Both the position numbers and the translations under genes were made by a program. The notes beneath the pieces are model-generated. The model saw only the letters and a program-made list of their open reading frames with translations. It did not search any database and was not told where the DNA came from. Positions 12,101 to 57,885 of a DNA stretch of 64,000 bases are shown piece by piece. The stretch covers positions 795 through 64,794 of the forward strand of contig JBIISZ010000005.1 of the NCBI GenBank assembly GCA_044340745.1, written 5' to 3'. Source of the DNA: Candidatus Saccharimonadales bacterium. GTDB lineage: Bacteria > Patescibacteriota > Saccharimonadia > Saccharimonadales > Saccharimonadaceae. The stretch's first letter is position 1. Each line of letters begins with the position of its first letter.

Positions 12101-15100
12101 CAACCTCAGCCCCTACCTTCGCTGGCCTGACACTATCAAGCGCCCTTGGTGTTTCAAGTGGTGGTACTGGCGCGGGCAACTTCGCGACGAACGGTGTGGT
12201 AATCGGACAGGGAACAAGCGCTCTGACGACCATCGGAACGACCACGGCTAACCAGTGTCTTATTTCTGGCGCTGGCGGGGTGCTTTCCTTCGCGACCTGT
12301 CCAGGTGCGAACGGGGTCAGTAGCTTCAACGGCCTTACCGGTGCGGTCAGCCTTAATACTGTCACCTCAAGTAGCTTGTTGACGAGCGGTAACACGGTGA
12401 CAATCCGTGATGCGAGCGATGCCGTGAAAGGGCTTGCGGCATTCAACGCCGACAACCTCACTGTCACTAACGGTCTTGTGAACACTGTTCAAAACATCAG
12501 CACATCTTCTTCACCGACCTTCGCAGGCCTTACCTTGACTAACGGGCTAAGCGTCGCTAACGGTGGTACGGGGCAGACCGCTTTGACCGCTAACCGTGTA
12601 CTGCTTGGTAACGGTACGTCAGGTATTGCCGTCAGCAACGAAGCGGCGGCTGGTTTGTGTCTGATCGGTAACGCGAGCGGTGCACCAACCTTCCAGGCAT
12701 GTCCGGTCGGTGGTGACATCTCTTCTGGAACTTCACAGACCGCAGGTGTCGTCGCGATGTTCGATACGACAACGAATAGTATCACTGATTCGATCATCTC
12801 GCAGTCAGGCTCGGTCGTTTCGGTTGGTGGTCAGCTGAGCGCGACGACTCTGAGCGGTAACGGTGCGGCATTGACAAGCCTTAACGCTTCAAACATTGCC
12901 AGCGGAACAGTTGCGAACGCACGCCTTAGCGCAAGCGTGACGCTCCAGGGTAACAGTTTCAACGGAAACAGCCAGCTGGTAAAGCTTGATAGTACTGGTG
13001 CGACGACCGAAAACGGGCTCTGTCTGATGAGCACCGGTTCTGGCACGGGTACGTCATTCCAAGCCTGCCCTGGTTCTAACGCCGCTGTCGGTGCAAACAC
13101 CTCACTTTCGAACCTTTCAAACGTATCTATTAACGACATGCTGCTCCCTGGCGCAAGTAACTCTATCGACCTCGGTAGTGCAAGCCAGACCTTCCGTAAC
13201 CTCTACTTAGGTGGAACGGTAAGTGCGGCAGGGGCTATCAACGGCCTGACACTGACTTCGAACAGCCTCCAGAGTGCAGGTGCGTTGAACTTGAGTGCCG
13301 GTGGTACGAACCAGGCAATCACCGTTGCCGGAAGCGGTTCGGGCGGGGTGACATTGAATGCTGGTACGGGCAGCCTACGACTTACGGGCATCACTTGTAA
13401 CACTTCCGCTAACGGTGGCAAACTGACGACGAATGCCTCCGGTGTCGTAAGTTGTGCCGATGATGTCGGCGGTGTCTCCGTAGTGGGAACGATCGATTCT
13501 CAGACAGCTAGTGCGAACGGCGCGACGATCAACGGGAACACTATCTACCTTCAGACTGCCAGCGCTACGGCAACGGGTGTCGTGACGGCCGGTACTCAAA
13601 CGTTCGGTGGTGATAAGACCTTCGCCGGAGCGACGACCCTACAGGGTGCTTCGACGATGAACGGCACGACAACGATCAATGGTACGCTGTATGTCGGAAA
13701 CGCATCTATGGGCGTTCTTTACACGACGCCTACGGGAATGGTCCAGAAGGCATCTACCGCTGGTGCGTCAATCGGACAGTGTCTCGCGTACACCGCGACG
13801 AACACCCTCGGTTTCCAGAGTTGTGGCGGTACCGGTGGTGGTAATCCGTTCTTGCAGGGTGGTAATGCCTTCAACGCCACGGCCACCCTCGGTGTGACTG
13901 ACAACCAAACACTTAACGTGATCCAGAACAACGCTAACCGTATTTCATTGACGAACGGTGGTAATATCGTCCTTACTCCTGATGTGAACAAGTTCGTATT
14001 CATCGACACTACCGCCGCTGATAGCGAGGCGAAACTGATCGTCGCTGGTCGTATCAAGACGGATACCGGATTCAAGGTCGGTACGGCGACGGGTATCTCA
14101 CTGGCACAGTGTGGTGGCTACATTCAGAACGCGGTCGTGAACGGCGGTATCATCACCGGTGGTAACTGTTCGACCGGTGGTTCGGCGGGTCAAGCGATCG
14201 TCCAGGGTGGTAATGCGTTCAACGGTACTATGACACTTGGTACGACAGACAACTTCGGCATCAATATAGTGAAGCAGGGAAGCACCATGATGGCTATCAG
14301 CCAAGACGGTAACATCGACTTCTCACCAAGCGTGAACAAGTGGGTCCGTATCGGTACGACCAATACTGATGGTAGCGCACAACTGATCGTGAACGGCCGC
14401 ATCAAGTCGATGACCGGTTTCCGCGTCGGTAACTTCGACGGGCTGACGATGAGTTGTGCGAACGGTAACCAGACACTTGGTGCGCCACGGTTTGAGGGGG
14501 GTATCCTGGTCCAGGCAAGCTGTTCGACGAACAACTCCGACCTTGCAGAGAACTATAGCTCGACTGACAACCTCCAAGCTGCCGAAATCGTCATGGCGGC
14601 CGGGTATGCACCTACGGCTGTGAGCCGCGCTACTGCAAGCAACCGCGAAAACCTGATGGGTGTCGTATCGACCGCTCCAGCGCAGACCCTTGGTACGGAA
14701 CAAGTTCCTGAAGGTTTCCCGATTGCGCTGACGGGCCGTGTGCCGGTTAAGGTCAACGGTGAGGGCGGTGCGATCGCTATCGGTGATAAGGTTACGATTT
14801 CAAGCGTACCTGGCGTCGGTAAGAAGGCGACGAACGCCGGTATGATCGTCGGTACCGCCGTCGAGACCTTCAACGGGGTAGGCGAGGGTGCGATCGAGGT
14901 ATTCGTCAACCTGATGTACTGGAAGCCGTCGGGTACCGACATGCTGCAGGCGCAATCTGCGGACATTAACACATTGAACATCTCGGGTATGGCAACGATC
15001 GCTTCACTGACCGTCACGGGCATCGCGACCTTCCAAGGTAACATCATCGTCAACGGACATATCGTGACCGGCGGCGGAGCACCGAACTATAGCGTCGGCG

Positions 15101-15384
15101 CAGCTGCGGGTGCTGGTGCAAGCGTCGTGATTGACGGTAATGACACCGCAGGTACGATTACGATCACCACTGGTGCTGACGTAACAGCCGGTAGTCTCGC
15201 GAACCTCGTATTCAGCCAAGGATATGGCAAGTCGCCTCGGATAATCATCTCCGGCCAGGATGACGCCAGTGTGAACGCCCGCGTCTTCCCGACTGCGAAA
15301 ACTACAGGCGGTTTCTCACTGGGAACATCTCAGGTGCTCGCCCCAAGTACCACCTACACCTTCGACTACTTCATCGTCGAGTAA
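6106..15384 (+). CDS. Giant (~3,092 aa) membrane-anchored fibre/adhesin-like repeat protein with phage tail-fibre-like motifs and a C-terminal autoproteolytic-chaperone-like domain
   Basis: N-terminal TM anchor; 11 copies of a KG[LV]A[SA]F[ND] module; ARTNLGAA..GANxDITSL motifs; NSDLAENY...GVVSTAP...ALTGRVPVKV near the C-terminus. ATG at 6106 preferred over TTG at 6097. Confidence 0.85.
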   Translation: MNRKALLPVVVSLGVFVVIFGVVALYLWNASRQTVSSERSQQSVSAVKELPQLEVNDEPVASTKQVIGGDLKVTGTVSIIDGLSASSLQLTPVSSTANLRAGQLYSANNNALYYYDGRSSANITGGLSTAQVDIARLQTEMQRILSQPDGVLTLQGQSGSVVLAGADGITITGTTISNNGVLTVQGRAGNVQFVSGNGIEVSGTTINNTGVTSVGGQTGTIAIGNGLSISNGTLVSTGITQLISQSSDIIVSNAGGGAYTISYAGSGAGGTVALAPTSPQEDSSNNASIAFNKTGLGNLIQLSTGTNASNKFVVDQSGAIINGSINFSQVTGIPSLVNSIAGLTGTVDLGAGLAVNGGRLVATTAVNNLVGTANQVNVTGSGTLTLSLPQNIATTSSPTFAGLTLTNALTIGNGGTGATTASGARTNLGAAASGANNDITSLSGLTTALSVAQGGIGTNTLTQNGVLIGNGTDAISSVNATGANQCLVSDANGEVSFQGCPGAGGVTSVNGKSGVVTIAGVDPNSIDSTGGTIVIRDASYTTKGLASFNATNFSVLNGSVNTAQDINVGATPTFAGLNLTSALSVANGGTGRTTFATNGLLLGQGTGALSTVGTTTAGQCLVSGTGGVLGFSTCPGATGVTSVNGLTGAITVSTIAASSLSQVGNTITINDATEAIKGLAAFNEDNFVVTNGVVNTIQNISTSATPTFAGLNLDSALAVTSGGTGRTSLAANSILVGNGTSAVSTLGTTVAGQCLASGVGGALSFVTCPGAEVVNSLNGQSGNVSITAIDPSSINTASGVITIRDASYTTKGLASFNGSNFSVIDGAVDTVQNIGTTATPVFEGLTLNSALGVASGGTGASSFAANSLLIGQGTSAVTSLGTNTAGQCLISGTGGYLSFASCPGSNGVASINGLIGAVTLRGISASSVLTSGSTVTIQDATDTIKGLAAFNSSNLVVTNGVVNTIQDISVNAAPTFAELTLTSPLAVSSGGTGRTTFALNSVLVGNGSAGLSSVSATGDNQCLISAADGSLSFTTCPGATGVNSINGLSGNLTLNAADPNSIASSGTTITLRDASNLRKGLASFDGTNFTVTNGAVNLIQDIGTGATPTFAGLNLGTALSVTNGGTGATNIEDARTNLGAAASGANTDITSLGSVTSLTSAANLSLSASNGTLTLQGAATVLEQSDGTNSTKLIFQNPTADVTYTLQTAAAGTYEVCTTAGNCVGVGGGVTTSGGTIGRLSRFISGSAIGDSIITDDGSTVSIGGTLSVNNITPSAAAVIGATTQSLSLQGSTTSISSTGGATTNTLTFATPSGVSKTITIPNASGTVAISATGPLVLDANGNLTCPTCLTSGGGGGGATGVSGINGITGDITLVASDASTITTSGTTITINDATATRKGVAAFNNTNLTVTNGVVNTIQNISTTATPTFAGINLNSPLTVANGGTGRTSLPKGIVIGNGTDPVTILAPTGASECLASDSGSNLVFVACPGTSVVNFLNGLNGTVTIDTVSGSSLAISGNNIRIQDATAAIKGLASFNSDNLTVTNGVVNTIQDISTSSAPTFNGLTLNTALGLASGGTGATTAPAARNNLGAASRGANSDITALSGLTTALSVGQGGTGQTTLTANRVLLGNGTSGVAVSNAASAGMCLVGNSSGAPSFQACPGADGVRTFNSLNGDVTLDTTSASSLVVSGNNIRIQDATSSIKGLASFDGNNLTITNGTVNTAQNITTSATPTFAGLNLTAALGVASGGTGRTSLTTNGVLVGQGTSAVSTVSTTTAGQCLVSGTGGSLSFASCPGSGGVSSLNSLNGAVTIDTVTPSSLLITGNNIRIQDATSSTKGLASFNTDSLTVTNGAVTTVQSINTSATPTFAGLTLTTPLGVASGGTGRSTLAANSLIIGNGTSAVSTLGTNAAGKCLVSGTGGVLSFLDCPGASVVNSLNGVSGTLSITAVDPASIDTTGSTITIRDASYTTKGLASFNGGNFIVSNGAVNTIQNISTTSAPTFAGLTLSSALGVSSGGTGAGNFATNGVVIGQGTSALTTIGTTTANQCLISGAGGVLSFATCPGANGVSSFNGLTGAVSLNTVTSSSLLTSGNTVTIRDASDAVKGLAAFNADNLTVTNGLVNTVQNISTSSSPTFAGLTLTNGLSVANGGTGQTALTANRVLLGNGTSGIAVSNEAAAGLCLIGNASGAPTFQACPVGGDISSGTSQTAGVVAMFDTTTNSITDSIISQSGSVVSVGGQLSATTLSGNGAALTSLNASNIASGTVANARLSASVTLQGNSFNGNSQLVKLDSTGATTENGLCLMSTGSGTGTSFQACPGSNAAVGANTSLSNLSNVSINDMLLPGASNSIDLGSASQTFRNLYLGGTVSAAGAINGLTLTSNSLQSAGALNLSAGGTNQAITVAGSGSGGVTLNAGTGSLRLTGITCNTSANGGKLTTNASGVVSCADDVGGVSVVGTIDSQTASANGATINGNTIYLQTASATATGVVTAGTQTFGGDKTFAGATTLQGASTMNGTTTINGTLYVGNASMGVLYTTPTGMVQKASTAGASIGQCLAYTATNTLGFQSCGGTGGGNPFLQGGNAFNATATLGVTDNQTLNVIQNNANRISLTNGGNIVLTPDVNKFVFIDTTAADSEAKLIVAGRIKTDTGFKVGTATGISLAQCGGYIQNAVVNGGIITGGNCSTGGSAGQAIVQGGNAFNGTMTLGTTDNFGINIVKQGSTMMAISQDGNIDFSPSVNKWVRIGTTNTDGSAQLIVNGRIKSMTGFRVGNFDGLTMSCANGNQTLGAPRFEGGILVQASCSTNNSDLAENYSSTDNLQAAEIVMAAGYAPTAVSRATASNRENLMGVVSTAPAQTLGTEQVPEGFPIALTGRVPVKVNGEGGAIAIGDKVTISSVPGVGKKATNAGMIVGTAVETFNGVGEGAIEVFVNLMYWKPSGTDMLQAQSADINTLNISGMATIASLTVTGIATFQGNIIVNGHIVTGGGAPNYSVGAAAGAGASVVIDGNDTAGTITITTGADVTAGSLANLVFSQGYGKSPRIIISGQDDASVNARVFPTAKTTGGFSLGTSQVLAPSTTYTFDYFIVE
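7600..12710 (+). repeat. Intragenic degenerate tandem repeat, ~134-aa (~400-nt) unit, 11 copies
   Basis: KGLA[SA]F anchors near 7730, 8130, 8535, 8940, 9340, 10300, 10700, 11220, 11620, 12025 and 12425; most units end in a CL-x(9-10)-F-x2-CP motif. Confidence 0.9.
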
Positions 15385-19896: not shown

Positions 19897-19951
19897 AGTT
19901 CCAGTGTAGCACACGAAGCTACTCGTAGCAGGCTATGGTAAAATGAAACGT

Positions 19952-20488
19952 ATGCAAAAGTGGGCGCAAAAACAAACAGGCTTTACTATCGTTGAGCTGC
20001 TGATCGTTATCGTCGTCATCGCTATCCTAGCGGGTGTGACGATTGCTGCGTACAACGGCGTGCAAGAGCGCTCGCGCCAGACGAAAATTACCAACGACAT
20101 CCGTAACCTCGAGCAGGCAATTATCGCGGCACGAAACAACAATGGCGGAGTAGCACTTCGCTATATCACGCTGAGTACCGCGACAGGTTCTAACTGCTGG
20201 AGCAAACCGACGGATACCGACTTAGCTGCGCTTCCCTCTACTGATGGTTGCTGGACTGCCTATAATGCCGCACTTGCCAGAATCAGCGACGCCTCCGGTA
20301 TCAACGTCCGCGGTCTGATTGATCCATGGGGAAGGCCATATTATATGGATGAGAATGAAGGGGAAGGCGCCGACCCACCGATCGCCTGCAACCCGGATGC
20401 AATCGGATACTATGCGCAGCCCTTTACGACAGCTCAGACGATGATAAAGTCACGCTTTATACCAAAGATTCAGCCTCGCTGTCTATAG
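19952..20488 (+). CDS. Type IV pilin / pseudopilin-like protein
   Basis: Class III signal peptide G|FTIVELLIVIVVIAILA, DPWGRPYY motif, Cys pairs. The ORF-track ATG at 19943 overlaps the -10, so 19952 is preferred. Confidence 0.85.
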   Translation: MQKWAQKQTGFTIVELLIVIVVIAILAGVTIAAYNGVQERSRQTKITNDIRNLEQAIIAARNNNGGVALRYITLSTATGSNCWSKPTDTDLAALPSTDGCWTAYNAALARISDASGINVRGLIDPWGRPYYMDENEGEGADPPIACNPDAIGYYAQPFTTAQTMIKSRFIPKIQPRCL

Positions 20489-22228: not shown

Positions 22229-24001
22229 ATGATGGCTGAGAAAGTGTTATCGATTGCCAATTCAATCACTGTCGGCGAACTTGCCGAAGTGCTCAACCTC
22301 CCCGTTACGACCCTTATCGGTGAGCTTTTTAAGAATGGTATCGCTGCGACGATCAATCAACGTATCGATTTCGAGACGGCGACAATTATCGTAGAAGAGC
22401 TCGGCCTTGATGTTGAGTTAGAGAAAAAAGAAAGTGCGAACGCCGGCACTGAACGCCGTGTCCGCGAGTTGTCTGATAACGCCGTCGGCCGGCCGCCGAT
22501 CGTAGCGGTCATGGGTCACGTCGACCACGGTAAGACAAGTCTGCTTGATTCTATCCTTGGCCAGAAGGTCGTTGAAGGGGAAGCTGGTGGTATCACCCAG
22601 CACATTAGCGCATACCAGACGGTCCGCAATAACCGCCCAATTACGCTGCTTGACACCCCTGGGCACGAAGCCTTCGCGGCACTCCGTCAGCATGGTGCGA
22701 CCCTTACGGATGTCGTTATCATCGTTGTTGCAGCCGATGACGGCGTGAAACCGCAGACTATCGAAGCGATCCGCTTCGCCCGTACGGCGAACGCCAAGAT
22801 CGTCGTCGCGATCAACAAGATCGACAAGGAAGCTGCCAACCCGCAGCTGGTAAAAACCCAGCTCGCAACCGAGCACAATCTTAACCCAGAAGAATGGGGT
22901 GGTGACACGGTGATGGTCGAAGTAAGCGCCAAGACCGGCCAGAACATCGACAAGCTCCTTGATATGGTGCTTCTTGTCGCTGATCTTGAAGAGCTAAAAG
23001 CGGAAGCCGATACGGCTGCCGAAGGGCTCGTCATTGAAGCGCACATGGAAACCGGCCGCGGTGCGGTCGTAGGGCTTCTTGTCGAACAAGGCGCGTTAAA
23101 GCCAGGCGCCTTCCTCGTGGCAGGAACCGCTTACGGTAAGGTGCGAACCCTTCAGGATTTCGCTGGTAAGGCAATCAAGGAAGCCGGGCCTTCGACACCG
23201 GTAACCATCTCTGGTTTTAAGGAATTGCCTCAGTTCGGTGATGTTTTTGAAGTCGTCAAGAATGAGAAGGAAGCTCGTGCCCGTGCGAACACCGTTCGTA
23301 TCGAGCGTGAACAAAACGCCGCAAGTGCGAACGTGACCGGTGCTGACCTCTTGAAGCTGATGACCCAGAAGCACGAAGCCGAAGACTTCAACGTTATCGT
23401 CAAGGCGGACGTCCAAGGTTCGCTGACCTCTGTGATTGATAGCCTCAAATTAATCGAGACTGGTGGGGAAGTGACATTACATATTGTCAGCAGCGGCGTC
23501 GGTAATATTACCGAGAACGATATTCGCCTCGCATCCGACGGCAAAACGGTCATCTACGGGTTCAATGTTGACCTTCCACCGGCGGTAAAGCAGCTTGCTA
23601 CCCGCGAGCGTGCCGAAGTTCGCCTTTACCGGGTGATTTATGAACTCCTCGATGATGCGAAGAACTCGATGGAAAAACTGCTTGCCCCAGAAGTGGTTGA
23701 GACGGAAATCGGTATCCTTGAAGTCAAGGGTGTCTTCCGTACGATGAAAGACCAGGTGATCACTGGTGGCCAGGTCGTTACTGGAAAGATCGCACCAGGG
23801 TTGCTCGTGCGCGCAAAGCGTAAGGATGAAGTACTTGGTGAGGCGGAAATCACCAATCTGCAACGTGAAAAGGTGGAAGTGAAGGAGGCCTTCGAGGGTG
23901 ACCTTTGCGGGCTCAGCCTTAAGACGAACAAGAAGCTGCTCCTCGAAATCGGTGATACGCTTGAATTCTTCACCCGCGAAGTCGTCGAACGACATCTATA
24001 G
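22229..24001 (+). CDS. infB: Translation initiation factor IF-2
   Basis: [36 protein letters not shown]. Confidence 0.97.
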
Positions 24002-24100
24002 TAATAGGGGTGAATGTTGTGCAAAAAGCTTGTGGTGACACAGGCTTTTTGATATATTGAGGGCAAAAGGCGTTGCAAGAAACAAAAAAGGAAATCATCC

Positions 24101-24418
24101 ATGGATCAGCTTGATGTGTTTATAAAGGAAATCATAGATACCAAACAGCTTCCCGGCATTACCGATGAGGCAAAGGTCGGTTTGGCCGAAGAAATGCGCG
24201 AAGGCCTGCTCGACCAGATCAACCGGGCGTTGATCGAAGCACTCCCGGACGGGAAGGTGGCGGATTTTACGGCGCTCCTTGATACTGATCCGTCTGAAGA
24301 AAAGATAGAAGCGTTCATCGTCGAAAGCGGCGTTGATATCCAAAAGGTCACTGCACAAACGATGCTTAACTTTAGGAACCGGTACTTACAGACCGGTGCC
24401 GAGCGTAGCGCGGAGTAA
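24101..24418 (+). CDS. Small acidic helical protein, DUF5663-like
   Basis: Pattern resembles the 28968 protein (helical, acidic, LIxALP/LSEGMS region); family call from memory. Confidence 0.55.
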   Translation: MDQLDVFIKEIIDTKQLPGITDEAKVGLAEEMREGLLDQINRALIEALPDGKVADFTALLDTDPSEEKIEAFIVESGVDIQKVTAQTMLNFRNRYLQTGAERSAE

Positions 24419-24421
24419 TTC

Positions 24422-27400
24422 GTGAACGAGCACGCTCCGACGACTGCGACGACGAACCCTGAGCCTCTCAAGGTCGTCTTAGTTGACCAGTCGAAGGACG
24501 CGCAGGATGAAGCACGTGACTTGGCAGATGCCCGACTGGATCGTGAGCTAGGCGAGGGTGGTAAGATCCGACAATTCCTGAACGGTATATGGAAGGGTAA
24601 TCTTGCCCGTGACTTTTACCGACAGAGGTACGTCAGCCAGGCACTCGAAACCATACAGACGTCCAACAACGTACTAGCTGATTCACCGGCGGAACGCCGC
24701 GCCAGGGCCCTCGAATCGACTATCGAACGGTTCCAAAGCGAACATGACGAAGTCATTCACGAGAGCGCGGGCGAGCGCCGTGAAGTGCAAGCCGCCGACA
24801 GTGTATTGGCGGTAGGGGTAAAAAATATTATCCGGCAAGCAGTCGAGCGGGCTCAGACATCAGGCCGTCCATTAAACGTGCAGGTACTTCAGGAAGAGCG
24901 AAATCGCTTCCTGAACGAATACCGCAAACAGCACGGCGAGGACGCACTTGGTAAGGGTATCGTCATGGCGGACAATATGTTCGATATTGCCCAGACGGTG
25001 TATGGTGTCGTGGAGCATGGCGAAAGCTTGGACCACGCACTTGGTCGCCTAGAAGTCGTGACAGGTGAAGCGCGTAACGGGGCGCGTACTGAAGCGAAGT
25101 ATACCGCCGTTGATAAAAGTATCGACTGGCTTTCTAAGAAAGGGCTTGCGTCCTTTATTACCCCCGGCGCCTTAGCGACCGGGGTTGCTGCCGGAATGGC
25201 TATCGCGCGTGTGACTGGGCACGGTGTCGTGGGGGCGGCTACCAAAACCTTGCTTCCAGGTGTCGCGGCGGGTGCCTGGGCGGCGCTTCGCGAGAACAAG
25301 CGTACGAAAGACGACCGTTCACAACACGCCCGTGAAATGGCGGTCGGTGGGGAGTTCGCTCAGGATGACAAACGGCGTACCGAGATGGAGCGCACGCGTT
25401 ACGAGTCGGTGGCTGCCGTAGAACTTATTACTCAGCTGCAAGAGGCTTCCACCGAAGAACGGCTCGAAGCCGGGGGCAACGATGCGTTGCAGGCAGCCCT
25501 TGACGCCCTTGCCGCCGCGCAGGCGCGCATCCAACTTTCTGATAGCCGAAACATCGACCTTGTGAGCTATTCTTCAAAGGAAGACGTCGGCGAAGAGCGC
25601 ATGATGCTCGACCTCGCTCGTCGGGAGGCACGCTTAGCAGTCGAACAACGCCTTACCCCTGAAGCACGCGCTGCACTTAACTTAGGTCCTACCGCAAGCG
25701 CGCGGGGACTTATCGACCAAAGAGCCCTGCTTTTCTCAAGGGTGTTGATTGAAGGTGAGGAAGGACAGGAAGGTATTGACCAGAAAGACGCCGCCTTCGC
25801 GAAACTCAAAGCGAAGCGCGTGGCTACGGCTGCGGCTATCGGTGTCGCGACAGGTGTCGTCGGCGGGCTGGTCGTACAAGAAACAGTCGCCGCGTTTGAT
25901 TCGACCCGTTTCGGACTTATTGATGCTATTCGAGGGGAGACGGCCGTACCATTCGAGGGGACCGGTGAAGTACATCAGACGATCCTTGAAGGGATGATAA
26001 GGGGTGACGAGACCATCATTCATACTGATGCTGCTGATACGTACGAAGCATATCCGACAGGTGAAAACGGAAGCATCGAAGTTACGAGCGACCATACGCT
26101 TGAGACAAATGAAGACGGCACCCTGAGTCTTATAGATGGCAACGGAAAAGCCTCCGTAGAAGGCCTTGTGATTGACGCGAACGGAACGCTTGATCAAGCC
26201 TCACTCGATAAGCTTGAAGCTGCCGGTATGGTTGTTGAGGACAAGTCGTTCGATGAAACAATTCAGACACAGACGACCGAACAGGTATCTACCGATCAGT
26301 ACATCCAGAATCATGCAGCCGAAACGACTCGTGTTACGCGTGATCTTTGGTACGGTAATGATACCCCAGGCGTATTTGATCAGAACGAACTTCGCGTATA
26401 TCGCGGGGGAAGCGATGCGGCGCCGGGAATCGTCGAGGGCGGATACCAGTATACCGTGGCCGGCATGACCCAGAACGGTTCATGGCAAGGCGGTGAGCGC
26501 GTCGACTGGAACCAGGCGGCATCTAACGGTAACTTGTTCGTCGCAATATCTGGTACGTATGATTCACAGGGTAATCCGTTCATGATTCCAATCGGCCCTG
26601 ATGGCGCCGTGAACATCCCTGCTGACAGCCCGGCCGGACAGTTCTTTGCCAATGAGAATAATTCAGTCGCCTTCAACGGTGCGTACATGGAAATCGTTCA
26701 GACGACCGGGCAAGATGCTGAGGGTGTTGTTCACATTCGTCCACTGGCGACCCTCGTAGGGGATACGAGCGTCGAGCTGGTGAATGATACCGTCACGACG
26801 GAAAGTATCGTGCACCATGCGGAATATTCCATTACCACGAACGGCTATGATACTGCCCAGGCCAACGCGACCGAGACGGCGCCGATCACTCCGATTGCTT
26901 CACGGCGGTCTATGGAAGCTTTACGGAACGAAGGTAGTGAAAATACACCCGAAACTTCTCCCGCGACTCCTTCTGAAACTGCAAGTGGCTACGGCTACGA
27001 AAACGGCCGTATCAGCCCTGACAGGCTACGCCGATGGGAGAGTGAACGCTCACCGCGCCTCCGTGAAAACCCTGACGCGGAGCTTGAGACACTTGAAGAA
27101 GTCGATTTCTACTATGAGCAACAACGCCAGCGTCGCGGTGAGGCGTACGTACAGGAAATCGAAGCCAACGTCGACCAAAGTGAAGCGCTACAGGCAATTG
27201 ATACTGACTCTCGCGCTATCATCGTAATGCCGGTCGGTGCTGCACAGGAATCGGAAAACATATACGAAGCGTTATCGTTGTATGCTCAACAGGATGAAGA
27301 TGCCCAGAAGAAAACGACAATACTCTTGAACGTAAACTGGATCAGTGACGCGACGAACGACCCTGAGAAGAAGGCGAAGATCGACAAGACCTTGAGCGAG

Positions 27401-28558
27401 ATCCAACGTGCCCAAGCCGACTTCCCTCAGCTCAACATCGCACAATTTACCAAAGTCTGGGATCGCGATTGGGTAGATGGCGTCCGTAACAAGAAGATAT
27501 ACGGTGAAGTGATCAAGACACTCTACGATACGGCAGCCTTTGCCGTTCGTCGCGCGATTAAAGAGGGCCGTGCGACACCTGATCAAGACTTGCTGCTTAT
27601 TACGAACGATGCCGACCAGAAGGGTATGCACCGCCATTACCTCCAACATTATGTCGCAGCTGAAGAGCAATATAAAGACTCAGACGCCTTTATCGGCACG
27701 ATCCGTTGGGGTGTCGAGACGGCCCGCGACTTCCCTGGGTACCATGTTTCGCAGCTATTCATGCAGGCTATGAATATCGCCGCAACACGTCCGACGAACC
27801 ACTCGCTTGCGCCGGCTACTATCGGCCCTAACTCGGCGTTCCGCGTATCGACGTATGCCGCTATCGGTGGCTGTGAGGACCGTGACGACCTCGGTGTCGG
27901 TGCGGATTCTGAATTAGGACGAAAGGTCCTGGCTGCTCGTGGCCGTTTGCCTGAAAAGAGCGGTAACGGATATGGTGGTCTTGGGACGACCTATCTCACA
28001 GGGTCGACAGTCGGTCCTGGTAGCCGCGAGCGGGTTATTCGCCAGGTGATCGGCTCTGATATCGATTCCGCTCCGGGTCGCTTGCTTGATTCGGCATATC
28101 GCCTTGATAACTTCATCCCGCACGCCTGGAACGAGTTCGACAATGGATCTACTCGTGAAGACGACAAGAATAACCCGAACCTGATCATAAAAGAAGACGC
28201 GCGAAAAGACTTCGCGCCAATCCGTCAGCGTGTCGAACGTCAGATCACCGACTTCATCAATCATTGGTATCCGGATCAGGCGGTCGCAAGCTTCACGTTG
28301 TCGATGCTATTCCCTGACGTACCTGAATTGAAGAATAATGCTCAAGCGTGGACGCTCCGCCAGCAGTCAGACGGTTCGTACCGCTTCGCCTTTACGACCG
28401 ACGGTGCGCGTCGCTTCAAGAATTCACTCCTCCGTTCTAAGGGCCGATTCGATCCGATTGCGAACCGTTTGCGCCGCAGGGTATATGGCGAAGTGCGTCC
28501 AGGTGCTAAGATTCGTCCGGTAGCGGCCGAGGCGCCCCTTGTGAGAGCTACCGCCTAA
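24422..28558 (+). CDS. Large (1,378 aa) membrane-associated protein with a C-terminal GT-A/GT2-like glycosyltransferase domain
   Basis: Two Gly/Ala-rich hydrophobic regions, a beta-rich middle, then IIVMPV...LLITNDAD...GPNSAFRVSTYAAIGG...ADSELGR. Confidence 0.7.
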   Translation: MNEHAPTTATTNPEPLKVVLVDQSKDAQDEARDLADARLDRELGEGGKIRQFLNGIWKGNLARDFYRQRYVSQALETIQTSNNVLADSPAERRARALESTIERFQSEHDEVIHESAGERREVQAADSVLAVGVKNIIRQAVERAQTSGRPLNVQVLQEERNRFLNEYRKQHGEDALGKGIVMADNMFDIAQTVYGVVEHGESLDHALGRLEVVTGEARNGARTEAKYTAVDKSIDWLSKKGLASFITPGALATGVAAGMAIARVTGHGVVGAATKTLLPGVAAGAWAALRENKRTKDDRSQHAREMAVGGEFAQDDKRRTEMERTRYESVAAVELITQLQEASTEERLEAGGNDALQAALDALAAAQARIQLSDSRNIDLVSYSSKEDVGEERMMLDLARREARLAVEQRLTPEARAALNLGPTASARGLIDQRALLFSRVLIEGEEGQEGIDQKDAAFAKLKAKRVATAAAIGVATGVVGGLVVQETVAAFDSTRFGLIDAIRGETAVPFEGTGEVHQTILEGMIRGDETIIHTDAADTYEAYPTGENGSIEVTSDHTLETNEDGTLSLIDGNGKASVEGLVIDANGTLDQASLDKLEAAGMVVEDKSFDETIQTQTTEQVSTDQYIQNHAAETTRVTRDLWYGNDTPGVFDQNELRVYRGGSDAAPGIVEGGYQYTVAGMTQNGSWQGGERVDWNQAASNGNLFVAISGTYDSQGNPFMIPIGPDGAVNIPADSPAGQFFANENNSVAFNGAYMEIVQTTGQDAEGVVHIRPLATLVGDTSVELVNDTVTTESIVHHAEYSITTNGYDTAQANATETAPITPIASRRSMEALRNEGSENTPETSPATPSETASGYGYENGRISPDRLRRWESERSPRLRENPDAELETLEEVDFYYEQQRQRRGEAYVQEIEANVDQSEALQAIDTDSRAIIVMPVGAAQESENIYEALSLYAQQDEDAQKKTTILLNVNWISDATNDPEKKAKIDKTLSEIQRAQADFPQLNIAQFTKVWDRDWVDGVRNKKIYGEVIKTLYDTAAFAVRRAIKEGRATPDQDLLLITNDADQKGMHRHYLQHYVAAEEQYKDSDAFIGTIRWGVETARDFPGYHVSQLFMQAMNIAATRPTNHSLAPATIGPNSAFRVSTYAAIGGCEDRDDLGVGADSELGRKVLAARGRLPEKSGNGYGGLGTTYLTGSTVGPGSRERVIRQVIGSDIDSAPGRLLDSAYRLDNFIPHAWNEFDNGSTREDDKNNPNLIIKEDARKDFAPIRQRVERQITDFINHWYPDQAVASFTLSMLFPDVPELKNNAQAWTLRQQSDGSYRFAFTTDGARRFKNSLLRSKGRFDPIANRLRRRVYGEVRPGAKIRPVAAEAPLVRATA

Positions 28559-28590
28559 GGCTATAATAAGAGCAAAGATTAGGGGGCATC

Positions 28591-28920
28591 ATGGATACGC
28601 AACAGCAGCTACTACAAGTAAAACAGGGGATTCTAGAGGACCTACTGCCTTTGGCAATCGAAGGGCAAGGCGCACCGGAAGAGCGTGCTGAAACGGTATT
28701 GTCTATTCTTGAATTAGGCAACACATCGCCTGAACTCTATGTAAAAGCGCGCGAAATCATCGGAAGCATCGAAGATAAGACCCTTCGTGCGGACTTACTA
28801 ATGAGGTTACTGGGGAACGTCCAACTCGCTTTGAGCTCGCTGGCTGGGCCAGAAGAAAGCACGCCGCCCACCGAAGAGGCCAGCCAGTCGCAGCCAGCTG
28901 CTGTCCCACCTCAACAATAA
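28591..28920 (+). CDS. Small acidic helical hypothetical protein
   Basis: 109-aa ORF with GGGGG SD-like site and an upstream TATAAT. Confidence 0.65.
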   Translation: MDTQQQLLQVKQGILEDLLPLAIEGQGAPEERAETVLSILELGNTSPELYVKAREIIGSIEDKTLRADLLMRLLGNVQLALSSLAGPEESTPPTEEASQSQPAAVPPQQ

Positions 28921-28967
28921 CTTCTCAGTTTGTTATAATGAGGAAAAGTAATTAGGAAAACTACTCC

Positions 28968-29396
28968 ATGTTCCAACTTGACGACCAATTCCTCATCGAT
29001 ATCGGCCTGAACGACCTCCCTGAAGAGCAAAAGCGACCGTTTCTTCAGCATGTCTACGACCAACTAGAATATAGGGTAGGGATTCGCCTGAGCGAGGGGA
29101 TGAGCGACGCTCAACTTGAAGAATTCGAAGCGATCATCGACAAGAAGCCAGACGTAGTAGACGCCTGGATACAGCAGTATGCCCCTGCATACGCAAGCGA
29201 TGAACTATTTGCGAAGATCCAACAAGCAAGCGGTCTGGCCGCCGACAATCCGCTGTTGAAGTCTGAATACGCTGCGACCAAATGGCTGGAAGTCAACCGC
29301 CCTGATTATCGCGACGTCGTCGCACAGACGCTCGAAGAGCTCAAGCAGGAAATCGCCCAAAGCCGCGACGCTATCCTTAGCCCGCCGACCGCCTAG
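28968..29396 (+). CDS. DUF5663-like protein
   Basis: MFQLDDQFLIDIGLNDLPEEQKRPFLQHVYDQLEYRVGIRLSEGMS, a pattern I recall from a widespread CPR family. Confidence 0.7.
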   Translation: MFQLDDQFLIDIGLNDLPEEQKRPFLQHVYDQLEYRVGIRLSEGMSDAQLEEFEAIIDKKPDVVDAWIQQYAPAYASDELFAKIQQASGLAADNPLLKSEYAATKWLEVNRPDYRDVVAQTLEELKQEIAQSRDAILSPPTA

Positions 29397-55368: not shown

Positions 55369-57885
55369 ATGAATCGCGCGTATCGTGGGTTTACGCTAGT
55401 TGAGGTGCTCGTTGTCATAGTCGTCGTGGCTATACTTGCAACAATTGTTTCACTTGGATTGAACGGGTATTTGGCTCAAGGTCGTGACGCGCAGCGATCT
55501 TCTAGTATGGTATCGGTCAGTGAGGCATTGGAAAAATATTATGATGCCAACGGTGAGTACCCGGGATGTACGGCGATGTCGGCGTCGCCTTCGAACGTTG
55601 TTAAAAACACTTTGACCGGTGTAACTGAGGATCTGTTCGTCGACCCTCGCGATTCGGGGACCACAACTTCGATTACTTGTGACGACATCGAATCAGTATC
55701 GGGAAATAAATATCAGTACCGCGGTGATGGAAGCGAGACTTGTGCGACAGGCCAGGCGTGTCTTGCGTATACATTGCGTTATCGTGAAGAGCAAAGCGGC
55801 ACAATCAAAGAAATTGACAGCCGTCGGAAAGTATCTATTTCTACCTCTGGTATTCCTGACCTTGCGGCAAGCGGTACCGGCATTACCCGCATCACCACCA
55901 ACTGGAATATGGTGCCTAACTCTACAGGCTACCACCTGCAGGTGTCTTCAAATGCGAGCTTCAGTAGCCTTGTTGTAGACGAAACATATGAAGCATATTC
56001 TGAGGTGCTAACGGGCCTTGGGTACAATACGACATACTATCTTCGTATCCGTGCGGTGAGTTCAACCGGAAGTGGTAACTGGTCGCCGACGGTTACTGCG
56101 ACGACCCAGGCGTTGTCTGCTCCGACTGTCAGTGCATCAACGACTGGTATGACCTCATTGCGTGCGACGTGGGGATCGGTGAGTAGCGCGACCGGATATA
56201 CGGTTCAAATTGCGAGGAACACCGCATTTACGACTGAGTTACAGACGTTCACGGCAAGCGGCACGTCCCAGAACTTTAGCGGCCTCGATTACAACACAGC
56301 GTACTATATCCGTGTCCGGGCGGTTGCGAACAGCAATAACGGGCCATGGTCGGCAACGGTCACCAGAACGACGGACGACTTGGATCGTCCAACACTGAGC
56401 GCCAGCACCTCAAGCCTTACTTCTTTGAGTGCAAGCTGGACGGCGGTGCCAACTGCGACAAGTTATACCCTCGAACTATCGACAGTTAGTTCATTCAGTA
56501 CGATTACCCGTACAATCACCGCTACGACAACCTCAACCTCTATTACTGGCCTTAGCTACAATACGACATACTACCTTCGCGTGAAGGGCGTTTGGAGCGG
56601 CAACCAAGGGCCATGGTCGAACGTTGTAACCCGCTCAACGGATAGCCTTGATGCACCGACGGGCTTGTCGGCAACTGCGCTCTCGACCTCTTCTATCAGC
56701 GCGGACTGGGACGCTTCAGTAGGGGCCTCATCCTATCGCCTTGAGTGGTCCACTTCGAGTAGCTTCTCTTCTTTGACCGGCTCGGCGGAAGGTATCACTT
56801 CGACCGCACGCTCAGCGACCGGGTTAAGCTCTAATACGCTGTATTACTTCCGTGTGCGGGCTGTTTGGTCGGGAAATAGTGGTCCTTGGTCATCGGTCGC
56901 AAGCGCGCGGACCGACATGGCGAACCCGACAGGCACGACAATCACTGCGGCCATGAGCGGATCGAACGCGGTCGGCACCGCATCGGCATCGTGTGCGAAC
57001 GGGTCTCCACAGTACCAGATCCGTTATCGAAGCACGAACACCTCTACGATGGGCACATGGTCTTCATGGAGTTCTTGGACGGCGACGACGACAAGGAGTG
57101 TCGCGACTGCACAAGGCTACCAGTACGGCTTCCAGGTCCAGTCTCGTTGTATCTCAGGCTCTTACATAAGTGACACCGTGTCACCGACTACTGTAGCAAC
57201 GACGGTGCGCGCCTTTGCGGCACCTGGTGCACCGAGTGTTTCGGCAAGTACCTCAGGCGGTACGACAACCTTCACCCGAGGTGGCGTCACCTGTTCTGGA
57301 AATGGCACGGCCGAATATCGCTACCGACGCTCACGAGAGGGTGACTATTACAGCTATAGTGGTGCGACGACAGGGAATAGCGCCACGACCGACACAACGA
57401 GCCAAGGCTGGAATTATGGTATGAACTGGCAGGGGCGCTGTAAGAATATTTACAACACTGGTCCGTTTGGCAGTGAGGGGCGTGCGACGTATCTTCGACC
57501 TGTCGGTAGGCCGAATGGCTACAGTTTCAATATGTGGCGTGAATCATCAAGTGTAATTAAGGGTACTGTCTCAAACTCATGCGACACCGGCGCGACATTG
57601 TATGGATACTTCGACGTCTGGGCACCATCGAACTGGCCATGGGTTAACCCAAGTACTGGTACAAATGAGGGACGCTATGGTTGGCGTCGCGATAGCTACG
57701 GTTGGGTCGGAGGGCTTAACTACTGGGCGAATACCATAACGACCGGTGCTACGACGAGCAGGTCAGGGGGTATCCCTAGCGGCACCACATGGCGCGTCGC
57801 TGGGCATTACAAGTGTCAGAATATGACAACAGGTCGTAATAGCGGTGACTTTGTTTACGGGGAAAGTGGAGCCTACGGGTTCTAG
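55369..57885 (+). CDS. Prepilin-type protein with tandem fibronectin type III domains and a Cys/Trp-rich tip
   Basis: G|FTLVEVLVVIV; four clear FN3 repeats (W...Y...YYxRVRAV...GPWS) and two degenerate ones. Confidence 0.87.
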   Translation: MNRAYRGFTLVEVLVVIVVVAILATIVSLGLNGYLAQGRDAQRSSSMVSVSEALEKYYDANGEYPGCTAMSASPSNVVKNTLTGVTEDLFVDPRDSGTTTSITCDDIESVSGNKYQYRGDGSETCATGQACLAYTLRYREEQSGTIKEIDSRRKVSISTSGIPDLAASGTGITRITTNWNMVPNSTGYHLQVSSNASFSSLVVDETYEAYSEVLTGLGYNTTYYLRIRAVSSTGSGNWSPTVTATTQALSAPTVSASTTGMTSLRATWGSVSSATGYTVQIARNTAFTTELQTFTASGTSQNFSGLDYNTAYYIRVRAVANSNNGPWSATVTRTTDDLDRPTLSASTSSLTSLSASWTAVPTATSYTLELSTVSSFSTITRTITATTTSTSITGLSYNTTYYLRVKGVWSGNQGPWSNVVTRSTDSLDAPTGLSATALSTSSISADWDASVGASSYRLEWSTSSSFSSLTGSAEGITSTARSATGLSSNTLYYFRVRAVWSGNSGPWSSVASARTDMANPTGTTITAAMSGSNAVGTASASCANGSPQYQIRYRSTNTSTMGTWSSWSSWTATTTRSVATAQGYQYGFQVQSRCISGSYISDTVSPTTVATTVRAFAAPGAPSVSASTSGGTTTFTRGGVTCSGNGTAEYRYRRSREGDYYSYSGATTGNSATTDTTSQGWNYGMNWQGRCKNIYNTGPFGSEGRATYLRPVGRPNGYSFNMWRESSSVIKGTVSNSCDTGATLYGYFDVWAPSNWPWVNPSTGTNEGRYGWRRDSYGWVGGLNYWANTITTGATTSRSGGIPSGTTWRVAGHYKCQNMTTGRNSGDFVYGESGAYGF

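Follow-up and report, generated by a model that had tools for sequence, protein, structure and literature searches.

In polymorphic toxin-immunity systems (CdiA-CT/CdiI, Rhs, and the Sec-exported WapA/WapI of Bacillus), the N-terminus of a large protein is constant, its C-terminus varies beyond a short conserved motif, and the next small acidic gene co-varies with that C-terminus and is exchanged with it between near-identical strains. In O-antigen glycosyltransferase (GT) alleles and in the Pseudomonas pilin and tfpO/tfpW-Z islands, recombination between conserved flanks replaces the glycosylation specificity along with the accessory gene that is cognate to it. We describe here a locus that resembles both, found in a 64,000-nucleotide stretch of a Candidatus Saccharimonadales genome (GCA_044340745.1, contig JBIISZ010000005.1, positions 795 to 64,794; hereafter the window). 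It encodes a protein of 1,378 amino acids, which we call the giant (24422-28558, + strand), with a GTG start 3 nt past the stop of up105 (105 aa, 24101-24418, + strand), and followed by dn109 (109 aa, 28591-28920, + strand) and dn142 (142 aa, 28968-29396, + strand); an earlier note on this DNA had listed these four open reading frames (ORFs) in the same order and at the same positions. Comparative analysis of sequences suggests that the giant belongs to a core, membrane-anchored, modular protein family of Candidate Phyla Radiation (CPR) bacteria, whose C-terminal enzyme can be exchanged and is a glycosyltransferase in nearly every case. In Saccharimonadia this enzyme domain and dn109 form one recombination cassette, swapped between close strains and moving between distant lineages.

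We modelled the giant with AlphaFold2 in two parts (residues 1-865 and 866-1378), with 80 homologues as the alignment for each. The C-terminal part (27017-28558), which comprises a GT-A domain and a C-terminal helical/beta subdomain, was modelled with a pLDDT of 90.9 and a pTM of 0.91, and AlphaFold2 and Foldseek together place the GT-A core at about residues 930-1230 (27209-28111). Foldseek returned 20 PDB matches for this domain at E<=1e-3, and the 20 best-ranked were all GT-A glycosyltransferases, led by the mannosyltransferase PcManGT (6yv7, E=4e-6) and followed by hyaluronan, chitin and cellulose synthases and the chondroitin polymerase K4CP. No toxin glycosyltransferase occurred among the top 50 structural matches. 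The resemblance is at the level of the fold only (TM-score 0.3-0.43 and 8-15% identity to the best folds), and the domain matched no curated glycosyltransferase family in Pfam or NCBIfam and no PDB sequence when searched either as a single sequence or as a whole-family profile. Its DxD motif (D1063-A-D1065, 27608-27616) lies within NDAD (residues 1062-1065), and D1063, A1064 and D1065 are invariant in 44 of 44 homologues; in a set of 81 sequences D1063 never varies and D1065 is kept in at least 90%. In the homologue alignment, N1137 of the GPNSAFR motif is invariant and D1162 of the ADSELGR motif is conserved in at least 90%. The composition of the domain looks cytoplasmic. The model thus identifies the C-terminal domain as a predicted GT2-like glycosyltransferase of the GT-A fold with an intact DxD.

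The model of residues 1-865 (pLDDT 82) is mostly helical in its N-terminal part. Residues 1-240 (24422-25141) form a conserved alpha/beta domain, predicted to be cytoplasmic, with pLDDT mostly between 80 and 96 and many near-invariant charged residues in homologue alignments. No hydrophobic segment precedes residue 241, so that, judged by hydropathy only, nothing there resembles a signal peptide. Residues 241-289 (25142-25288) form a Gly/Ala-rich hydrophobic hairpin of two helices (241-263 and 268-289, family mean KD19 1.39 and 1.43), with a conserved P279-G280 in the second helix and low AlphaFold2 confidence across residues 243-264. A conserved helical domain lies between the hydrophobic segments (residues 290-465, 25289-25816, pLDDT about 90-97); it is predicted to be cytoplasmic, is Lys/Arg-rich at both membrane-proximal ends and holds the invariant residues E291, R304, G309, R393 and A399. 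It leads into a third, single hydrophobic helix (residues 466-492, 25817-25897, AAAIGVATGVVGGLVVQE) with KD19 up to 2.08, in which G482 and Q486 are near-invariant and E487 is invariant. The beta-rich middle domain that follows (residues 493-823, 25898-26890) is the best-conserved part of the giant; its modelled strands span residues 517-818 (region about 496-820), and its composition is Lys/Arg-poor (K+R 6.4%) and Ser/Thr/Asn/Gly-rich (S+T+N+G 31%). The conserved motif PIASRRSMEAL (residues 824-834, 26891-26923) closes the constant region. This architecture agrees with the earlier note in most respects: a helical N-terminus without a signal peptide, a beta-rich middle, and a C-terminal GT-A domain with conserved DxD, GPNSAFR and ADSELGR motifs, whose fold was predicted with confidence. 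It departs from the note at the membrane, where two Gly/Ala-rich hairpins had been proposed: the region at 241-289 is indeed a two-helix hairpin, but 466-492 is a single helix.

Neither the giant nor the 109-aa protein matched any entry in Pfam, NCBIfam, PADLOC, PHROGs or PDB sequences. The model of the N-terminal 865 aa gave best Foldseek E-values of 0.5 (PDB) and 0.07 (BFVD), searched undivided, so that a weak match of a single domain may escape. No secretion or trafficking module (signal peptide, TPS, RHS, LXG, PAAR or MuF) was recognisable in these 865 aa by Pfam, Foldseek or hydropathy. The N-terminal ~835 aa appear to be a scaffold that has no match in any library searched.

We found that this scaffold is widespread. 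The 81 homologues of the first search round are all hypothetical proteins, from Saccharibacteria wherever an organism is named, and 78 of them cover at least 85% of the query. The N-terminal 865 aa retrieved 962 representatives of 50% identity clusters at E<=1e-3, 536 of them at E<=1e-30, and matches in genomes include metagenome-assembled genomes (MAGs) of Moranbacteria, Doudnabacteria and Parcubacteria. Hidden Markov models (HMMs) of four regions detected the N-terminal domain and the hydrophobic/helical region in every full-length member and the beta-rich domain in nearly all; at locus L031 no beta-rich domain match was detectable by HMM. Among the tails of 214 proteins, 136 were strong GT-A domains, 50 were divergent GT-A domains and 21 were other, and the remaining 7 proteins (mostly truncated) had none. 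Three loci carry a GT9 tail of GT-B type instead (PF01075, E=2e-10 to 7e-8), suggesting that an unrelated fold supplies the same chemistry. In one Saccharibacteria MAG (L021, 2666-6172) the tail is a DnaJ J domain with an intact HPD motif (E=3.5e-9). The earlier note had advised looking for homologues with the same N-terminus and different C-termini, and the family provides them as GT-A alleles, GT9, the J domain and unassigned domains. Known toxin domains (nuclease, deaminase, ADP-ribosyltransferase or other) were found in none of about 240 members. Pfam gave no match for the other tails, and none for 16 proteins without a GT-A tail, for five with long N-terminal extensions or for two relatives of 2.6-2.8 kaa.

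Several individual members add to this picture. The gene after the J-domain member of L021 looks like a DEAD-box helicase by sequence. Four Moranbacteria loci (L025, L026, L031 and L032) share a C-terminal domain of about 450 aa with a DHH tripeptide; it matched no Pfam or PDB sequence, and the label "DHH-motif" denotes the tripeptide only and assigns no function. Proteins P0216 (2,789 aa) and P0217 (2,577 aa) carry the scaffold in their C-terminal half, after about 1,500-1,700 aa without assignment. Their scaffold parts comprise the N-terminal domain, the hydrophobic/helical region and part of the beta-rich domain, and neither protein has a strongly hydrophobic segment.

Among the Saccharimonadia proteins, identity in the GT domain is decoupled from identity over the N-terminal 840 aa. 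Proteins P0003 and P0015 are 95% identical at the N-terminus and 34% in the GT domain, and the corresponding values are 94% and 30% for P0076 and P0079, 98% and 50% for P0010 and P0014, and 41% and 73% for P0064 and P0075. GT domains were less than 50% identical in 7 of 18 pairs whose N-termini are at least 80% identical, and GT alleles are common to lineages whose N-termini are only 38-41% identical. The C-terminal, acceptor-side half is the most divergent part of the domain. Four near-isogenic pairs, with N-termini 87-99% identical and C-termini 28-48% identical, all break at the protein level directly after the motif P(I/V)xSRRS(L/M)E(A)L, which corresponds to residues 824-834 of the window protein. 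At the DNA level, two near-isogenic pairs (L033/L034 and L035/L036) have flanks that are 87-100% identical; identity falls to ~45% from the beta-rich/GT junction through the end of the ~100-aa gene and is restored from the start of the DUF5663 gene. By homology to these breakpoints in related loci, we place the exchangeable cassette of the window at 26924-28920 (+ strand), comprising the linker, the GT-A domain, the spacer and the 109-aa gene. In a close relative (run X6, a sludge metagenome at about 400x depth), 77 nt replace 50 nt at window positions 26919-26970. This indel reaches from the last part of the junction motif into the Ser/Thr/Pro-rich linker that precedes the GT domain, the same junction at which cassettes break.

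The protein encoded by dn109 has a strongly acidic helical core of about 80 aa, a disordered acidic/Gln/Pro tail, and no export signal. Across 16 Saccharimonadia loci its identity depends on the GT domain rather than on the N-terminus, with regression coefficients of 0.96 and 0.11, and in two near-isogenic pairs it is only 27-28% identical whereas the adjoining small genes are 97-99% identical and flanking genes overall 95-99%. These patterns identify dn109 as the probable cognate partner of the GT domain. It is, however, absent beside the GT-A members of L005, L013, L016 and L022, so it is no obligatory antidote, and GT9, J-domain and other non-GT-A tails are not followed by any consistent small gene. 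At L011, directly after a giant with a divergent GT-A tail, the 109-aa gene has a homologue in reverse orientation (11981-12361, - strand).

On the other side of the giant, up105 is a constant companion. An up105 orthologue lies directly upstream of the giant wherever the flank is readable (30 loci of L001-L032, plus L033-L036), with a gap of 2-10 nt, including in Moranbacteria, Doudnabacteria and Parcubacteria and whatever the C-terminal domain. Sequence identity among these orthologues follows that of the giant's N-terminus (coefficient 0.76). The earlier note had called both flanking genes DUF5663-like. This is clear for dn142, which matches PF18908 at E=8e-17 (62.1 bits against a cut-off of 23.7 bits), but up105 gave only a weak match under that cut-off (E=0.005, 17.9 bits), and its pairwise similarity to dn142 is 24% identity over 62 aa (E=0.019). 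Among up105 orthologues the PF18908 match is not flagged as weak in L004 and is flagged as weak in L001 and L033. We regard up105, on this weak match, as a probable divergent DUF5663 member, acidic and helical, and a constant partner of the giant. Three loci (L001 6148-7590, L002 1526-2968 and L017 5586-7040) encode an additional protein of ~480 aa that contains DUF5663, placed after infB and before up105.

The 142-aa protein behaves differently. It has 2,673 homologues, the best 120 of which are 77-100% identical (77-87% outside its own near-identical cluster), and it is linked to the giant only within Saccharimonadia. Its far greater conservation than that of the giant argues for a core protein rather than the effector-specific chaperone that the earlier note had suggested, and it is probably a neighbour of the giant by chance; DUF5663 may represent a core CPR chaperone tied to fmt and def rather than to the giant. 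In Southlakia epibionticum, the slot between infB and fmt/def/priA holds SEML1_0161 followed by two DUF5663 genes (PMC10633639 Tables S1/S2). SEML1_0161 encodes 767 aa without annotation and was scored GD/ES/ES by transposon sequencing (Tn-seq), that is, as growth-defect and then as essential at two later time points (PMC10633639); by its genomic slot it is a candidate homologue of the giant's N-terminus, but a profile search did not reach it, a search with dn142 yielded nothing beyond close relatives, and our literature search found no paper that mentions it. Of the two DUF5663 genes, orthologues of dn142 that belong to core families enriched in Patescibacteria, SEML1_0162 was essential and SEML1_0163 growth-defect by Tn-seq (PMC10633639); for SEML1_0163, the Foldseek/DPAM matches were a trigger-factor C-terminal domain and an LTXXQ/Spy-like protein (PMC10633639 Table S2).

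The earlier note had described the locus as inserted after infB. In the window, infB (22229-24001) and the gene for ribosomal protein S1 lie upstream of up105, and fmt, def and priA lie downstream of dn142 on the other strand, converging on the four-gene block. We found that relatives at 44%, 35%, 33% and 32% identity retain the gene order S1-infB-[~105 aa]-giant-[~110 aa]-DUF5663-fmt-def-priA, with the block inverted at one locus. This conserved synteny rules out an island inserted after infB and indicates a single-copy core locus of Saccharimonadia. Among the loci compared, the 109-aa gene, the 142-aa gene and the linkage to infB and fmt are limited to Saccharimonadia. Neither the window nor the related loci have a polysaccharide or glycan cluster context, the neighbours being S1, infB, DUF5663 genes, fmt, def, priA and recJ; a variable family located outside such clusters, with a GT-A domain at its C-terminus, is compatible with what the earlier note proposed. 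Directly 3' of the infB stop, a hairpin followed by a T-run (24024-24051, + strand) was read from the sequence itself and looks like a terminator, although a consensus terminator scan did not list it; the four genes may therefore form their own transcription unit. Transcription evidence for the locus is weak and too thin for use. The window organism is also present in lake-water, sludge and groundwater metagenomes, and the contigs of its close relatives there carry the same allele throughout, adding no population-level polymorphism.

Elsewhere in the window, a second giant ORF of 3,095 aa (6097-15384, + strand, TTG start) lies upstream of a peptidase M14/Big_5 protein and has no Pfam match at E<=1e-4. 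Two pilin-like proteins are encoded on the + strand at 19943-20488 and 55369-57885. In the latter, three fibronectin type III domains come after an N-terminal methylation motif (N_methyl), and the former has a comparable hydrophobic N-terminus, with N_methyl detected in its L033 orthologue.

The explanation that we favour, while holding it at slightly less than an even chance, is that the giant is a resident, scaffold-tethered glycosyltransferase with strain-variable specificity. The ~835-aa constant part, always paired with the upstream DUF5663-like protein, serves as a scaffold for the swappable C-terminal enzyme, which would glycosylate an envelope or surface component of the cell itself, either a protein or a membrane-handled lipid-linked glycan. 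The dn109 protein would bind the GT domain and set its specificity, regulate it or serve as its acceptor, and allele exchange would diversify the glycan made, much as in O-antigen or pilin-glycosylation islands, under phage or host-recognition pressure. We favour this reading because the giant is a core syntenic single-copy gene down to about 32% identity, because the repertoire is almost wholly glycosyltransferases (186/214 GT-A) and includes replacement by an unrelated fold, because the fold neighbours are GT2 enzymes of glycans and lipid carriers and not protein-glycosylating toxins, and because toxin domains are lacking and the 109-aa gene is dispensable in several GT-A lineages. The confidently modelled GT-A fold with its invariant DxD, the size of the family (962 clusters), the constant upstream partner, the sharp and recurrent cassette breakpoints, the co-variation of dn109 with the GT domain and the divergence of the acceptor-side half also speak for it. 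Several observations weigh against it. A C-terminal swap with a co-varying small acidic gene is a signature of toxin-immunity systems too, the locus (in the window and in related loci) has no flippase, polymerase or sugar-nucleotide genes, the J-domain variant is at odds with a purely glycosylating role, and the acceptor is only putative. The predicted topology is a further difficulty. In the 15-aa flanks of the third helix, 200 members average 5.9 K+R before and 0.7 after, an asymmetry present in 200 of 200, and both outer flanks of the hairpin at 241-289 are positively charged. By the positive-inside rule, both N-terminal domains would thus be cytoplasmic and everything past residue 492 would lie outside in all 200 members, beginning with a beta-rich domain of extracellular-type composition. 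Nucleotide-sugar donors are not expected extracellularly, and a cytoplasm is where GT-A/DxD enzymes, GT9 enzymes and J domains operate. Either the giant is a cytoplasmic monotopic protein whose hydrophobic segments do not span the membrane, or its enzyme acts in another cell. The monotopic option is compatible with the Q486-E487 pair and with the conserved Pro-Gly and Gly-Gly found midway along the second and third helices.

Action in another cell is the core of the main rival, which we consider possible though rather unlikely, and in which the giant is a contact-dependent polymorphic effector, anchored N-terminally in the epibiont membrane, that exports its beta-rich domain and enzyme to act in the cytoplasm of a host or neighbour. 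The dn109 protein would then be a neutraliser (immunity) or an export chaperone, and the DUF5663-like protein would solubilise the helices or assemble the anchor. The constant N-terminus, the variable C-terminus and the conserved motif at their boundary all fit, as do the joint exchange and co-varying identities of the variable domain and the next small acidic gene, the divergent GT domains behind near-identical N-termini (7 of the 18 pairs) and the alleles shared across lineages with distant N-termini (38-41%). The charge bias gives N-in, C-out in 200/200 with an extracellular-like middle domain, and the recognisable C-terminal domains need cytoplasmic cofactors (NDP-sugars, DnaK), so that outside the producer they would be sensible only if they reach another cytoplasm. 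Cultivated Saccharibacteria are moreover obligate epibionts, and many of their essential genes have envelope functions of unknown role (PMC10633639). The gene is, however, single-copy, syntenic and core, with no orphan cassettes in the locus flanks or the 64-kb window; no member has a nuclease, deaminase, ADP-ribosyltransferase or other toxin domain; the giant has no signal peptide and no LXG, RHS, PAAR or TPS domain, and no PADLOC or PHROG relationship; dn109 is missing at the four GT-A loci named above, and no consistent small gene follows other tails; and the fold neighbours are GT2 enzymes rather than TcdB, Lgt or NleB-type toxins. The earlier note's secreted effector with chaperone or immunity partners is borne out in part, in that the 109-aa protein is cognate to the GT domain, swapped and co-varying with it; the core syntenic CPR family, the glycosyltransferase repertoire, the GT2 folds, the sometimes missing 109-aa gene, the high conservation of dn142 and the absence of any recognisable secretion domain argue against it. 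We give a comparably tentative standing to a CPR-wide device for contact-dependent delivery, in which the scaffold, its obligate DUF5663-like partner and a beta-rich stalk would deliver a swappable enzyme to a host or neighbour, and the Saccharimonadia cassette would also encode a cognate acidic neutraliser. A membrane platform for protein biogenesis or quality control, on which the scaffold and a chaperone-like DUF5663 protein would recruit enzymes onto nascent or exported proteins, seems improbable to us. The conserved linkage to infB, fmt and def in Saccharimonadia and the very high conservation of dn142 suit it, as do the trigger-factor/Spy-like match of SEML1_0163, the essential or growth-defect phenotypes of SEML1_0162/0163 (PMC10633639) and the J-domain variant, whose intact HPD would recruit DnaK. 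Yet that variant was seen only once, outside Saccharimonadia the up105-giant pair persists but no longer has translation genes in synteny with it, and rapid exchange of GT alleles is unexpected for a housekeeping modification. Least probable of all, in our judgement, is a function outside the cell, as a glycosyltransferase using lipid-linked donors or as a lectin-like adhesin on host glycans, whose variability would reflect host-range adaptation or immune or phage pressure. Such a function would match the predicted C-out orientation, the extracellular-like middle domain and the concentration of variability in the acceptor-side half of the GT domain, and PcManGT, the best fold match, presumably groups with enzymes that handle polyprenyl-phosphate sugars. 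To our knowledge, however, no bacterial GT-A enzyme functions outside the membrane, and the invariant DxD points to nucleotide-sugar and metal chemistry, J-domain and GT9 variants would be senseless outside the cytoplasm, and dn109 lacks an export signal yet co-evolves with the GT domain.

Our literature searches found nothing describing the giant's family, DUF5663 or polymorphic toxins in Saccharibacteria. The enzyme domain belongs, remotely, to a fold already known, and evolution by cassette exchange has precedents; none of the papers and libraries searched contained the scaffold, its obligate partner, the fusion of this scaffold to a swappable enzyme, or the acidic protein exchanged along with it. 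Little is known of how Patescibacteria recognise and exploit their host bacteria, and functions have yet to be assigned to most of their lineage-specific essential genes. Cassette exchange marks an interface in conflict with host, phage or kin, which makes the giant family a concrete and testable candidate for chemistry that differs between CPR strains at their surface or in their interaction with hosts, and the cassette of the giant is likely a determinant of envelope or host interaction. Should contact-dependent delivery prove true, host exploitation or host range in episymbiotic Patescibacteria would be determined, strain by strain, at this locus. Experiments are feasible, since Southlakia epibionticum is genetically tractable and has the same slot with essential genes (PMC10633639).

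Set beside the systems with which we began, the locus differs in ways that separate it from each. The polymorphic toxin-immunity systems share its layout; unlike them, the giant has no toxin, RHS/YD, TPS, LXG or PAAR domain and no signal peptide, is a single-copy, syntenic core protein whose variable domains are, with few exceptions, glycosyltransferases with their catalytic residues intact, and has a small downstream gene that is missing in several lineages. Large glycosylating toxins and effectors (TcdA/TcdB of GT44, Legionella Lgt/SetA, NleB/SseK) likewise include large proteins with a GT-A/DxD domain and hydrophobic Gly/Ala-rich helices, but in the giant the glycosyltransferase is C-terminal, reversing the order, protease and CROP-type domains are absent, and the organism is an epibiont of bacteria and not a pathogen of eukaryotes. 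A large clostridial-type toxin was ruled out by fold neighbours and domain order. With GT2 enzymes of the GT-A fold (PcManGT 6yv7, the synthases and K4CP), the domain shares the fold, a DxD after the fourth strand and an acceptor-side G-x-N...GG...(D/E) pattern, yet it ends an 865-aa non-enzymatic scaffold, and no Pfam GT family was detected in it. The O-antigen and pilin islands exchange free-standing genes, whereas the unit exchanged here is a domain of a scaffold protein, and the locus has no sugar-nucleotide, flippase or polymerase genes nearby. The Eag chaperones of type VI secretion systems (T6SS) and the LXG toxins with Lap proteins of type VII secretion systems (T7SS) also place a small helical protein directly upstream of, and always linked to, a protein with hydrophobic helices; the locus has no sequence or domain relationship to them and no T6SS/T7SS context, and the partner of the giant is instead a relative of DUF5663 that co-evolves with a conserved region of ~835 aa.

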